A stretch of 64,000 nucleotides of DNA from an uncultured Bacteroidales bacterium (GCA_944323775.1 CALUTT010000015.1:507-64506), one strand, 5' to 3'; positions 3,786 to 25,606 are shown, numbered from the stretch's first letter. Notes: generated by a model from the letters alone, not told the origin. Numbers and translations are program-made.

Positions 3786-6700
3786 TCAGTTTGCCGGAGA
3801 GGCTTCGGCAAAGTCCTGGTCTGTGGCGTCACGCACGCAGCGGTAATAGACATATATGTCATCATCGACCTTTTCCCCGGCGTCCCCAAGACAGGTTACC
3901 TGAGTCCAGTCATATCTGAAAGCTATTCTGACCTTTTCATTGGAGAACCTGGTGCTGCAATATATAGGATATTGGCTAAGGGAGCCATTGAGCAACACTT
4001 CAGCGTTGCTCGCCAGAATGGTAAGCTCGGCGAGATTGGGAATTCTCCAGTGCCCTTGTCCGTTGACGGGGTCGTTTATTGACCCTTCGAAGTAATCCGC
4101 GCAGGGGTTCGGCTTGTTATTGCCTATATTCAGGACTTCATCGAGTCTTGCAGGTTCTGTCTGTGCTTTCTTTGAAACAACCAGTCCTTTGTAGAACCTG
4201 TTCTGGAGGTCATCTTCATCGTGCTCGTTCAACTGGGCATCAGTTCTTGTCGGACGGTACATGTTGTTGTCGAACTTGTCTCTGAAATCCAGCAGATAGT
4301 TTCCGTTTGGTATGGTGTACAGATCAAACATTGGGTCAGCCACTGCATAACCGGTGTTGACATCAGCAGGAAGGCTACGTATGCATCTTATCGGCAAGTC
4401 AGCTTCAGTCACACCGCCATACGCACCCTTTTCAACTGCCCAGAAGGTTTGTTTGCCATGTGTGCTGGTATGATACAATGCTCCATCAGCGTAATACTCG
4501 CTCGGATACCAATCGTTATTGTCGGGCCATCCGTCACCATCTGTGTCAGTACCTCTTCTCATTTCACTCTTGTCACCAACATACAGGTTGGATTCGTTGG
4601 ATGTGGCGATTGATCCCATTCCGATTCTCAGATACTCGTTGATGGCAGGAAGATACCAGTGCACTTCGCTTTTGTCGATAATGCCGTCGCCGTCAAGGTC
4701 CCTGTTACGTGACATGCATGCATAATACGCCCTGGCGACATTTTCTCTATACATGTCAGTAAGCTTTCTTGCTCCCGTGACATTGTCCTTGTATCCGTTC
4801 TCTGCCGCATCGATATAGTAATTCCATCCGTAATAAGCAGATCCTGATCCTATCATTGCCCATTGGTTGGACCTGCCGTCTGTATCGCTGTAATAATCAG
4901 ATGATTTCGGATCTCCGTATAGGCACAGCGGAGTCTCATTGAAAGTCTCCAGCCCGAAAGCGTTGATTTCTGAGGCAGCAGTGTTGTAAAAAGTCTGCAT
5001 CGAACGCTGGGAAATGTTGGTATGCACATTGCTGAACGAACTGTTGCCGTCTGATGACGTCTGTACATCCATGCTGATGAGCATTCTGCGCTGTTCCGTA
5101 TTTACGAACGTCCCCCAAGTGATATTGTTTCCGGACAAAGGGTCAGCTGTGTAGTAATATTCATCGACGAAGCCCGTAAAAGTTGCATAATAATGGGCTT
5201 GGCCATCAGAACCGGTACGGCTGAAAACAGAAATCCCTCTGCCGTCTTCAGTACTTTCTGCGGAATTTCCAGTATAAACGGTCTCTCCGTTCATTATTTT
5301 TTCTACGACCTGCCCCATCTTTACGCAGGCGTCATATACGTCAAGCAGTTTTGAGTCAGTCTTACCGTCAGCGCTTTTCCATGAAGGGAGTCCTGGATAT
5401 GACTGAAGGTCACTTACGTCTGTTTTCTGTGGCAGGAATTCGACCCATTTGTAGTCAACATCGGCAAGGTCAGCGGATCTTGCGGCTTCAAGCGCCTGGG
5501 CATAGTCGCCCCCGGAGTAATTCTTGACAAATGTCCTGTATGGATGCAATTCCCTGAGCCCGTTCTGGAAAGGAGTTTCGATTGTGACTATTAGGTGCTC
5601 GCTGATCGCATCGGCGTCACTCATGCCGGAATTCGAGTTCTGCGTTGCTTTTGCCGCCTCGGCGATGGCTGAAAGGTCATATTCAAGGAATACCTGTTCG
5701 AAATGTGCATCAAGGGCATAATTCCTCGTTGTTCCCGAAGTGCTGACGATGCTGCCTTCGGCTCCGGGCTGGTTCTCGACATCAGTGGTTGCCTCGACCT
5801 GAATGTTTTCTATTCCGTGGACAGATACGTTGTAGATGTATCTGTGATTGCGCAGGACTGTGAAGTCTCCCCAGTTCCCAGCACCGAAATTGCCGAGGTG
5901 TATCGTATATGAAACAGTCCCGGCATATACCAGATTGCTGTTGGCGTCCAATTCTGAATACTGTCCTTCGATGACGACATAAGTGGCGTTTACCGGCGCG
6001 TTTGTCCATGCCTTGTGTGTCGGCTTTGCCTCATCGGTTGTGTTACTGTCCCATTTCTCCCTTGAAGAATAGTCGCTGCATACACCGTTTCGGGAATCCT
6101 GGATGTTTTCAGGGATGAAAAACCTGAACGAGAATGAACCCCCTTCGGCACTTCCGATTGGCTTGCGGGTGCCGTCATAATAGAATTCTCTGTAGGACTC
6201 GTTCGGCGAAGTCTCTATTCCTCTGTTCGGTGAAAGCCTGGTTCCTGCAGGAATATTGTAGACATAGTAGTTGGAGGCATTGAATGAAATAGTATGTCCG
6301 TCGGTATTCGTATATTCCTGCCCGATATTGAACTGGATGTCAGCGATGCACCTTTGCAGATAGAGATTGCCGGTCGGGTTGTCTTTTTCGATCGTGACCT
6401 GATCCGCTCCGGTCATTATCATCTGCTGTTCATCGAAAGTCGGGGTGTTTCCGTCCTGACTGAATACTCTTTGAAGGAAAAACAGGCTCTTTCCGAGCTC
6501 TTCGGCTGATTTTCCTGCCTCCGCCCCTTTTTTCAGTTCGTTGACATATTCGGAAAACGATTTCCAGCGGCCAGGGTCATCTGGGTCAAACTCGTCAGTG
6601 CCGACTCCAGTCATGTCATAATGCTGCCAGTTGTTGTCGCTGATATAGTTTCCGAGAGCGCATATCAGTTTATTGCCGGTTGTTGTCGTGAATGTCGCCG

Positions 6701-7058
6701 TATACGTTATCCCGCCGTTGCCGGTGGAGCCGCCGCCGAGCACAAGACTTCCGTCCGCTGTCTCTACAATCTGCTCGCATTTTGACCCGTCAGAGTTGAA
6801 TATGAACAGAATCAGTGAGGTAAGACGAGAATATGAATTTGACTTAGTTACGACCAGTTCTTCCACGTCTTTGGCGGAAAACGTCATGGTCACTTCCACA
6901 GGCTTGCCTTCCTCGACGATCTTTGCGTCAAACTCCTCCTTTACGCATGCGGAGAAGACAAATCCTGCAACTGTCAACATGACAGCCACGGCAATAATCC
7001 TGAATGATATGTATCTGTCAGTCATCATTTTCACTGTTCTATTCAAATGCAGGGACAT
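3786..7058 (-). CDS. Large type V pilus tip/ancillary adhesin (lipoprotein) with C-terminal lectin-like domains
   Basis: Lipobox FVFSAC, processing motif VVTKS, N-terminal pilin fold motifs (LQRCIADIQF, VLRNHRYIYNV), and two W-x-L/I-P-x-x-x-E ... RC(I/V)R modules at the C-terminus. Confidence 0.75.
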   Translation of the reverse strand: MSLHLNRTVKMMTDRYISFRIIAVAVMLTVAGFVFSACVKEEFDAKIVEEGKPVEVTMTFSAKDVEELVVTKSNSYSRLTSLILFIFNSDGSKCEQIVETADGSLVLGGGSTGNGGITYTATFTTTTGNKLICALGNYISDNNWQHYDMTGVGTDEFDPDDPGRWKSFSEYVNELKKGAEAGKSAEELGKSLFFLQRVFSQDGNTPTFDEQQMIMTGADQVTIEKDNPTGNLYLQRCIADIQFNIGQEYTNTDGHTISFNASNYYVYNIPAGTRLSPNRGIETSPNESYREFYYDGTRKPIGSAEGGSFSFRFFIPENIQDSRNGVCSDYSSREKWDSNTTDEAKPTHKAWTNAPVNATYVVIEGQYSELDANSNLVYAGTVSYTIHLGNFGAGNWGDFTVLRNHRYIYNVSVHGIENIQVEATTDVENQPGAEGSIVSTSGTTRNYALDAHFEQVFLEYDLSAIAEAAKATQNSNSGMSDADAISEHLIVTIETPFQNGLRELHPYRTFVKNYSGGDYAQALEAARSADLADVDYKWVEFLPQKTDVSDLQSYPGLPSWKSADGKTDSKLLDVYDACVKMGQVVEKIMNGETVYTGNSAESTEDGRGISVFSRTGSDGQAHYYATFTGFVDEYYYTADPLSGNNITWGTFVNTEQRRMLISMDVQTSSDGNSSFSNVHTNISQRSMQTFYNTAASEINAFGLETFNETPLCLYGDPKSSDYYSDTDGRSNQWAMIGSGSAYYGWNYYIDAAENGYKDNVTGARKLTDMYRENVARAYYACMSRNRDLDGDGIIDKSEVHWYLPAINEYLRIGMGSIATSNESNLYVGDKSEMRRGTDTDGDGWPDNNDWYPSEYYADGALYHTSTHGKQTFWAVEKGAYGGVTEADLPIRCIRSLPADVNTGYAVADPMFDLYTIPNGNYLLDFRDKFDNNMYRPTRTDAQLNEHDEDDLQNRFYKGLVVSKKAQTEPARLDEVLNIGNNKPNPCADYFEGSINDPVNGQGHWRIPNLAELTILASNAEVLLNGSLSQYPIYCSTRFSNEKVRIAFRYDWTQVTCLGDAGEKVDDDIYVYYRCVRDATDQDFAEASPAN

Positions 7059-24683: not shown

Positions 24684-24715
24684 GACCCTGCTGCCTGACA
24701 GATATAAAAGTGCTC

Positions 24716-25606
24716 CTATAACAATCTGATAATCATTTTGTTGGCTTTGTCGACGGCGACATTGTCGAGCGATGCAAGATATATTCTTGTCGTGCTTTCC
24801 GAGTTATGGCCCATGCCTTCGCTGATGATTGACAGGGGAACATTCCTGTTTCGTGCAATGCTGGCCCAGGAATGCCGTGCTACGTACATGGTCAGCGGTG
24901 CGGTAAGGCCGATCCGTCTGCCGATGGCCTTGAGGTTGCGGTTGATCCTGTGTCCGGCGTCAAGGTACTGTTTCCTTGCCAGCATGGCGTCCTCGCAGTC
25001 TATTAGCGGGAGTATATAGGGCGAGTCTCCGGTATCGTGCCTGCTGACAATTTCCTGCATGCACTTTTCCCATTTGACGAACAGCTTCTGTCCGGTCTTG
25101 CGCCTGAAATAGCAGAGCTGTCCGTTGCGCAGGTCCTTTTTCCTGAGGTAGGCCATGTCCACGAGCGACATTCCTCTTGTGTAGAAGGAAAACATGAACA
25201 TGTCCCTTGCCATTTCGATCGAAGATCCGGCAGGGAGACAGAGGTTCTTGATGGAGCGTATCGCTTCGAGCGGAACTGCGCGCTTGAAGGTTTTGCTGAC
25301 TCCTGTGTAGACATGCCTGAACGGGAATTTCTGGTCAGTCAGCCCGAGGTCGACGGCCCGGTTGTAGGTGGCCCTGAGAACCCTCATGTAGAACGACGAG
25401 CTGTTGGGACAGACGCCGGTGCTTCTGAGGAAAGCCTCATATGCGGCCATTGTCTGCGTGTCCATCCGTTCGAAGGTCAGGTCTCTGCCTTTCCTGAACC
25501 TCTCAAAACTTCTCAGAGTCGTCGCATACGTTTCAGATGTCCTGCTTCGGCCGGTTTCCGTCATGAGGAAGATTATTTCTTCCATGAACTTAAATACTGT
25601 CTGCAT
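24716..25606 (-). CDS. Tyrosine site-specific recombinase (candidate invertase)
   Basis: SAM-like core-binding domain, FSFYTRGMSLVDM (R), RRKTG (K), YVARHSWAS, GMGHNSESTTRIY (H, Y nucleophile); in-frame stop just upstream, so only 296 aa. Confidence 0.9.
   Translation of the reverse strand: MQTVFKFMEEIIFLMTETGRSRTSETYATTLRSFERFRKGRDLTFERMDTQTMAAYEAFLRSTGVCPNSSSFYMRVLRATYNRAVDLGLTDQKFPFRHVYTGVSKTFKRAVPLEAIRSIKNLCLPAGSSIEMARDMFMFSFYTRGMSLVDMAYLRKKDLRNGQLCYFRRKTGQKLFVKWEKCMQEIVSRHDTGDSPYILPLIDCEDAMLARKQYLDAGHRINRNLKAIGRRIGLTAPLTMYVARHSWASIARNRNVPLSIISEGMGHNSESTTRIYLASLDNVAVDKANKMIIRLL

Follow-up and report, generated by a model that had tools for sequence, protein, structure and literature searches.

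One invertible promoter between two divergent type V pilus operons of an uncultured Candidatus Cryptobacteroides, a probable toggle between pilus types

Among the adhesive filaments of gut and oral Bacteroidales, type V pili are the main ones, and until now their phase variation has, to our knowledge, been reported as an ON/OFF process. Here we analysed a stretch of 64,000 nucleotides (called the window throughout) from an uncultured Candidatus Cryptobacteroides (Bacteroidales; genome of 1.71 Mb), in which the locus at 3786-25606 (21.8 kb) carries two divergent, intact type V pilus operons placed head to head, with a short invertible promoter segment, the hinge, in the gap between them. The best comparison for the genes is the FimA cluster of Porphyromonas gingivalis, which has the layout fimX, pgmA and fimA-E (PMC3436787). 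FimX and PgmA (the latter an outer-membrane protein) are unneeded there for the polymerisation of FimA and are reported to influence the transcription of fimA; in a mutant lacking the entire cluster, fimbriae return when fimA alone is supplied (PMC3436787). For the hinge, the comparison is with the phase-variable Mfa1 fimbriae found in Phocaeicola vulgatus and the Bacteroides fragilis IVp promoters, which are inverted by Tsr tyrosine recombinases; such recombinases of Bacteroidales act on non-adjacent, distant promoters (PMC12940148). In the vpma system of Mycoplasma agalactiae, loss of the recombinase Xer1 gives phase-locked cells (PMC2268961).

We propose, with a probability of about 0.78, that in the window two type V pilus operons of old lineages meet at one invertible promoter, and that inversion of this promoter picks which arm is transcribed. 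The 183-bp segment holding the sole recognisable promoter of the locus would be turned by site-specific inversion towards the left or the right arm, the enzyme being likely the tyrosine recombinase encoded beyond the right operon (Table 1). In any one cell a single operon would then be transcribed, including the barrel/OmpA pair, anchor and tip that belong to it, while the other arm would stay silent. Judged from the layout of the genes and the promoter, mutually exclusive expression of the two pili is the most likely outcome. As each orientation faces a complete operon 20-39 bp past the repeat, the hinge has no obvious OFF state. Cells of the two pilus types would be found together in a population, without an obvious bald state, and the locus would be a compact natural toggle for the choice of adhesion or antigen. 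Moreover, exactly two anchors of the Mfa2 family are encoded in the genome, both within this locus, and therefore the anchor-bearing pilus repertoire appears to be under one binary switch.

The gap between the arms is 286 bp long. Perfect 16-bp inverted repeats enclose the 183-bp segment in it, and the start codons of the arms lie only 20 and 39 bp from the 22-nt extended repeats. The start taken for the left DUF3575 gene is the ATG at 12667, as in the gene calls of metagenome contigs, and the exact 194-aa product was found on 22 contigs. Both strands of window positions 3000-26500 (23.5 kb) were scanned for promoters, with perfect consensus motifs only. The sole full match to the Bacteroidetes promoter was TTTG-N19-TATATTTG (12767 to 12737, minus strand), in the invertible segment. 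Of the other -7 boxes in the scan, one was antisense within the left shaft gene, one lay in the FimD gene and one before rlmD, and the intergenic plus strand held no -7-like box even when one mismatch was allowed. The promoter signals of the segment all face one way, and a predicted terminator-like hairpin, of putative role, lies at its far end on the same strand as the promoter. The repeat core was found once in the genome, at this locus. The repeat arms are imperfect palindromes (TCTCT-TAATG-AGAGA, window 12707-12721), as expected for the core site of a tyrosine recombinase. In L001 (Logan SRR32591470, 96-106), an assembly with the promoter facing left, the -7 box carries one change, with TATATCTG for TATATTTG.

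The inversion was followed in public assemblies encoding exact DUF3575 proteins, all of them consensus contigs with one orientation each. The promoter was directed towards the left arm in three complete assemblies (the window, L001 and L097) and towards the right arm in six (L002, L003, L004, L095, L096 and L102), and the partial assemblies L098 and L103 also had the latter orientation. In the inverted assemblies the breakpoints were exactly at the repeats, while the flanks and the repeats themselves were unchanged. Two haplotype groups were distinguished among the assemblies. Both orientations occurred in each group, with 0-1 differences in the segment, and therefore at least two independent inversions are needed. 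In addition, the left repeat was the precise end point of three further contigs, which is how assemblers behave when both states are present in a sample. There is good evidence that the hinge is a working invertible switch, and it comes from assemblies rather than from reads within a population.

One of the assemblies with the promoter facing right, L095 (ENA ERZ21549410 contig_26, 1110-2260), has an insertion sequence of about 1.1 kb between the right repeat and the right DUF3575 gene. It encodes a 304-aa DDE transposase (PF01609) oriented against the promoter. Through this insertion the right arm may have lost its coupling to the switch.

The gene families and the gene order of the locus were taken from the ORF listing of the window together with Pfam and NCBIfam scans. 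The operons are 9 and 12 kb in size, with six genes in the left arm and eight in the right. Every frame is open in both arms, and the genes overlap or are separated by gaps of no more than 51 nt. All pilin-like products of both arms carry a lipoprotein signal ending in Cys. An earlier note on this DNA had described a gene order and gene families common to the two arms, which we found as stated, and neither arm is pseudogenised in the window. The note had also regarded the arms as complete, self-contained alternative pilus systems, and this view was strengthened by the intact operons, by the type V folds described below and by the invertible hinge promoter, which offers a direct mechanism for alternative expression. 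The different substrates and the phage or immune escape that it gave as examples are conjectural. Some of its details had to be corrected. The coordinates given for the pilus locus run up to 25606, where the last ORF (minus strand) encodes the tyrosine recombinase, and the name lectin-tipped for the adhesins is backed by Lcl_C matches which, at 28.2 and 20.5 bits, are below the Pfam cut-off of 34.9; the lower score belongs to the C-terminus of the left 1090-aa protein.

Neither the 487-aa nor the 368-aa shaft protein gave a match in Pfam or in a sequence search of the PDB. Homologues of the two proteins were therefore gathered and aligned as two families, and the structures of both were predicted with AlphaFold (pLDDT 81.5 and pTM 0.79 for the left, pLDDT 80.2 and pTM 0.78 for the right). 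In Foldseek searches against the PDB, type V pilins ranked top for both shafts with a probability of 1.0 (E 3.5e-11 for the left, 1.2e-13 for the right). The top set comprised the FimA prepilins 6jzk, 6jzj and 4q98 as well as 4gpv and 4jg5, with BACEGG_00536 and BDI_3519 included; Bacteroides pilins were thus among the top matches. A comparison of the two family profiles showed homology from end to end (hhalign 99.4%, E 6e-22). As judged from these models, both shaft proteins are FimA-class type V pilins with a two-domain fold; the proteins named major pilins in the earlier note do fold as type V pilins. The left shaft protein had no match to the Mfa1 family model NF038041 in the NCBIfam scan and its best fold matches were FimA-class, and for these reasons the left arm was not filed as Mfa1-type.

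The alignments of the shaft families agreed in several features of sequence. The lipobox Cys was invariant (C20 and C22). An N-terminal strand was followed by a conserved K/R in the sole low-confidence loop of the models, within the motif T-R-S with a near-invariant R49 in the right shaft and T-K/S-R in the left shaft. The C-terminal strand was conserved as VTPEF in the right and VTPxFE in the left shaft. The K/R loop is the expected site of maturation cleavage, and the C-terminal strand would be of the donor strand type. In the other pilin-like protein of the left arm (367 aa), K58 was invariant after the N-terminal strand and the C-terminus carried an IDVPPFE motif, while the 508-aa FimC-position protein of the right arm was conserved in 18 single-arm Fim-type loci. 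Nothing useful came from PDB sequence searches with the FimD homologue, with the large lipoproteins of 1090 and 1010 aa or with the profile of the 367-aa family.

The shaft pilin was the most variable gene in the strain comparison (about 95% identity), and the anchor and accessory genes were 100% identical. In L098 (Logan SRR36242933, 2345-3324) a different gene of 498 aa (<45% identity) replaces the left shaft pilin; the left DUF3575 gene of this assembly is near-identical to that of the window and has exactly the same 194-aa product, and the OmpA proteins agree at 96.5% identity. The left shaft pilin of L095 appears split, with a 292-aa frame identical only up to residue 242. The four left structural genes (window 3786-10550) have a G+C content of 47.7-49.6%, and the adjacent left OmpA gene has 58%. 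In 1-kb windows of the genome the mean is 54.3% and the 5th percentile 48.9%, so the left structural genes are at or below the 5th percentile. This low G+C suggests that the pilin cassette was exchanged or acquired apart from the barrel/OmpA genes.

The arms differ widely in sequence. The identity between them was 40% for the DUF3575 proteins, 36% (full length) for the OmpA proteins and 29% for the Mfa2 anchors, and all remaining pairs were at or below 26% with marginal E-values, so that the paralogs are strongly diverged, as had been noted earlier. Closer relatives were found in other genomes: the left DUF3575 protein was 72% identical to that of L008, and the DUF3575 protein of the other arm was 58% identical to that of L014. 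L008, from the same genus, is a left-type single arm with the barrel at 72% and the OmpA protein at 49% identity. L072, a Prevotella metagenome-assembled genome (MAG), is another left-type single arm, whose gene six is 34% identical to the 1090-aa protein over the full length and whose operon ends with a DUF5106 gene. Of the 80 fetched loci, 18 held the complete gene set of the right arm in single-arm form, and Rikenellaceae, Cryptobacteroides, Egerieisoma and Butyricimonas were represented among them.

In a maximum-likelihood tree built from 90 DUF3575 proteins, the clade that took in the barrel of the right arm also held all 18 Fim-type operons (SH-aLRT 98) and excluded the left barrel; the left-arm barrel was sister to the single-arm copy of L008. 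Mapped on this tree, the label of operon type needed 1 change compared with 15.7 in shuffled data, and 0 of 500 shuffles were as low. Since the barrels of the two arms fall in separate clades, two old operon lineages have been brought together at this locus, and by the tree each arm probably kept the barrel it had evolved with. The twin arms therefore stand side by side as two old lineages and not, as the earlier note had it, as duplicates. A third DUF3575 gene of the genome (C20:9605-10129; L013:6582-7133) is distant, with 23-26% identity. No pilus genes follow it, the next genes being on the other strand, and hence not every DUF3575 gene is part of a pilus operon.

The right arm is colinear with a cluster of seven genes in Porphyromonas macacae (203, 489, 385, 311, 440, 657 and 559 aa, the sixth being a FimD equivalog). 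BLAST matches were obtained at positions 1, 2, 4, 6 and 7, and positions 3 and 5 were too diverged for BLAST. The right barrel is 49% identical to P. macacae gene 1, and the second gene is 29% identical to gene 2 over the full length. The 1010-aa protein aligned with P. macacae gene 7, the alignment starting from M19 (25% over 523 aa, E 1e-25), and this FimE-position homologue has a C-terminal extension of about 450 aa. Because it aligns with the gene at the FimE position, the 1010-aa lipoprotein belongs to the canonical fimA-E set. Of the two right-arm additions that had been claimed, the large lipoprotein is thus no addition, and the DUF5106-thioredoxin is indeed extra beyond the fim cluster. 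By gene position, size and the P. macacae locus, without direct comparison with the P. gingivalis sequences, the DUF3575 protein would correspond to FimX and the DUF3868/OmpA protein to PgmA. The DUF5106 protein is a lipoprotein with CGDC (CxxC) in its thioredoxin-like half. The homologue at the end of the L072 left-type operon is 31% identical to it, and another lies upstream of the L010 operon; in view of these occurrences DUF5106 seems to accompany such pilus operons repeatedly, though in loose attachment.

The tyrosine recombinase keeps R144, R244, H245, H267 and Y276. Only three related tyrosine recombinases were found in the genome, the other two being 27-28% identical to the locus copy. 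A strong terminator (25711 to 25686, minus strand) parts the recombinase from the upstream BACON gene, which gives it a transcription unit of its own. Close relatives (at least 50% identity) were patchy in the genus, as 6 of its 60 species had one, for the most part within a longer frame of about 400 aa. Among the same-genus relatives most frames are of about 400-450 aa, and the locus copy has 296 aa (frame of 307), so it may be a shortened form. The locus as a whole is flanked by housekeeping genes, with rlmD and cysteate synthase on the left and a BACON lipoprotein and queA on the right.

Table 1. Features of the twin pilus locus, in window coordinates.
Feature	Position	Strand	Basis
Left gene 6, 1090-aa lipoprotein, putative tip adhesin	3786-7058	-	Pfam DUF4906 31.2 bits (cut-off 27.7); lipobox
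Left gene 5, 367-aa lipoprotein, putative accessory pilin	7039-8142	-	Lipobox C33; unconfirmed as pilin
Left gene 4, Mfa2/FimB-family anchor	8120-9094	-	Pfam Mfa2 (PF08842) 93.5 bits
Left gene 3, 487-aa shaft pilin, predicted FimA-class fold with insertions	9087-10550	-	Predicted structure and Foldseek
Left gene 2, OmpA-like/TPR, PgmA-position	10601-12073	-	Pfam OmpA and TPR matches below cut-off
Left gene 1, DUF3575 small beta-barrel, FimX-position	12083-12667 (longest frame to 12679)	-	Pfam DUF3575 229 bits
Left inverted repeat TTCTCTTAATGAGAGA	12706-12721	none	Perfect 16-bp repeat
183-bp invertible segment	12722-12904	none	Exactly inverted in independent assemblies, flanks unchanged
Bacteroidetes-type promoter TTTG-N19-TATATTTG	12737-12767	-	Motif scan; faces left arm in this assembly
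Right inverted repeat TCTCTCATTAAGAGAA	12905-12920	none	Perfect 16-bp repeat
Right gene 1, DUF3575 barrel, FimX-position	12966-13541	+	Pfam 238.5 bits
Right gene 2, DUF3868/OmpA/TPR, PgmA-position	13552-15036	+	Pfam DUF3868, OmpA and TPR_2, all above cut-off
Right gene 3, 368-aa predicted FimA-class shaft pilin lipoprotein	15088-16194	+	Predicted structure and Foldseek
Right gene 4, FimB/Mfa2 anchor	16235-17128	+	Pfam Mfa2 (PF08842) 99.3 bits
Right gene 5, 508-aa accessory pilin lipoprotein, FimC-position	17141-18667	+	Weak FimA and FimD N-terminal matches
Right gene 6, 708-aa FimD tip adhesin	18664-20790	+	NCBIfam NF052322 equivalog, 538 bits (cut-off 170), full length
Right gene 7, 1010-aa lipoprotein, FimE-position homologue	20777-23755 (longest ORF from 20723)	+	BLAST to P. 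macacae gene 7
Right gene 8, DUF5106/thioredoxin-like lipoprotein, CGDC motif	23769-24683	+	Pfam DUF5106 103 bits
296-aa tyrosine recombinase	24716-25606	-	Phage_int_SAM_5 and Phage_integrase

The toggle has to be weighed against other explanations of the same locus. The two operons may be served by promoters of their own which the scan did not recognise, for example before the shaft genes, as happens in fim clusters under two-component control; inversion would then tune the first two genes or one arm, and the two pili would co-exist. In P. gingivalis fimA is under a regulatory cascade and fimX and pgmA influence its transcription (PMC3436787), each shaft gene has a gap of 50-51 nt ahead of it, and a scan for perfect motifs would pass over weaker ones. 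However, the consensus promoter occurs nowhere else in the 23.5 kb, with the other -7 boxes placed as given above, the tight spacing of the genes is that of single operons, and the signals of the segment run in one direction. We regard this arrangement as unlikely. A second alternative concerns the switch itself, as the two orientations might be fixed strain polymorphisms that arose by rare rearrangement, without a programmed and reversible switch. The evidence for inversion comes entirely from consensus assemblies with one orientation per contig, which counts in favour of this reading. But each of two haplotype backgrounds was found in both orientations with the sequence otherwise unchanged, perfect 16-bp inverted repeats mark the exact breakpoints, three contigs stop right at a repeat in the way that mixed populations would give, the locus encodes a tyrosine recombinase, and the layout is like that of known Bacteroidales invertons (PMC12940148). 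Fixed polymorphism was thus considered very unlikely. The mirror-image gene order could also be explained by a recent inverted duplication of one operon, with arms that are redundant or of which one is decaying. Against this stand the identity of no more than 40% between the arms, the DUF3575 proteins far closer to those of other genomes and in separate well-supported clades, and the intact frames throughout the window, and we give redundant or decaying arms almost no credence. The recent-duplication origin is contradicted by the DUF3575 tree.

A few points nevertheless weigh against the proposed toggle between two pili. The organism is known from metagenomes only, and its pili are predicted from genes alone. 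Weak or non-consensus internal promoters may be present, for instance in the 50-nt gaps before the shaft genes. The gingipain-type (C25) protease family PF01364 was not found in the genome, and the control genomes matched none either. The 367-aa left protein, which had been called a minor pilin, remained unconfirmed in this role, since neither the profile comparison with the shaft pilins (hhalign probability of 10%) nor the PDB search (no match) linked it to pilins. The tyrosine recombinase is a plausible candidate for the hinge invertase, linked to the hinge by proximity and scarcity; it is encoded about 12 kb from the switch, and Tyr replaces the usual first His of its HxxR box.

The DUF3575 gene was followed by an OmpA/DUF3868 gene in all 69 loci with enough downstream sequence (69/69). 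This linkage, together with a barrel tree that tracks operon type, is consistent with a pilus-specific outer-membrane module in which the DUF3575 and DUF3868/OmpA/TPR proteins would export, nucleate or tether to peptidoglycan their own pilus only. Since P. gingivalis FimX and PgmA are dispensable for FimA polymerisation (PMC3436787), such a module was kept as a doubtful possibility. The earlier proposal of a cognate barrel/OmpA platform for each pilus accordingly divides into two parts: the co-inheritance is supported, by the linkage and by the 1 against 15.7 changes on the tree, and the role as an assembly platform does not follow, given the dispensability of FimX and PgmA. If the pair were such a module, each arm must have its own, and the twin locus would be a natural cross-complementation test for a missing outer-membrane step of type V biogenesis. 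With its own DUF3575/OmpA genes for each pilus, the locus offers matched cognate and non-cognate sets for probing their function.

A divergent DUF3575 pair was not seen again in the genomes sampled. There was none among all listed matches in 24 same-genus genomes, none among the best 150 matches listed for 301 same-family genomes, and none in 80 Bacteroidales loci, 69 of them with at least 900 bp upstream; the DUF3575 pairs in these loci and genomes were same-strand tandems only. For 11 of the 80 loci, under 600 bp of sequence is present upstream of the barrel gene, and several of the matches in genomes are right at a contig start. Assembly-breaking switches or repeats may be common upstream of DUF3575 operons, and because MAG contigs often break at such switches, some twin loci could be hidden. 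No convincing inverted repeats were present upstream of eight same-genus single-arm operons. On the other hand, an ON/OFF inverton was found before the DUF3575-led operon of two loci. The repeat of the L072 inverton, TCTCTTGCGAAGAGAT, is 16 bp long and has a core similar to that of the hinge repeat, and the inverton in L076 has a 21-bp repeat adjoining a recombinase. The core of the L072 inverton (9641-9656) reads TCTCTT-GCG-AAGAGA, and no recombinase is present within 10 kb upstream of it.

In the open-access literature we found no paper describing a hinge promoter between two type V pilus operons. Inversion-based binary choice between two surface filaments or layers that differ antigenically is known from Moraxella Piv (Q/I type IV pilin), Salmonella Hin (flagellin) and the sap system of Campylobacter fetus. 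These differ from the hinge in that they use other recombinases or RecA, concern other filament classes, and swap one structural gene or use a repressor. The P. vulgatus and B. fragilis Tsr invertons are similar in that inverted repeats enclose a short promoter segment upstream of a type V operon and a tyrosine recombinase is involved (PMC12940148). However, they are ON/OFF switches whose OFF state faces no operon, whereas the hinge faces a complete operon both ways, and the hinge repeat is unlike the published TACTTNNNANGTAANNGAA motif. The vpma/Xer1 system resembles the locus in its one promoter, in a tyrosine recombinase encoded next to the locus, and in alternative genes for surface lipoproteins that are expressed one at a time (PMC2268961), the last of these being predicted for the hinge. 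It differs in moving single genes behind a fixed promoter, with several recombination sites, while here a small promoter cassette flips between multi-gene operons. With the P. gingivalis FimA cluster the right arm has in common the same seven-gene order, the FimD equivalog, the FimB/Mfa2 anchor, the predicted FimA-class fold and the FimE-position homologue. It differs from that cluster in the extra DUF5106/CxxC gene, in a FimE homologue nearly twice as long, and in being without a promoter of its own, the flippable one being common to a second, unrelated pilus operon. The parts of the locus are thus of known kinds, type V pili and Bacteroidales invertons, and the twin-operon wiring is new and rare in the genomes sampled.

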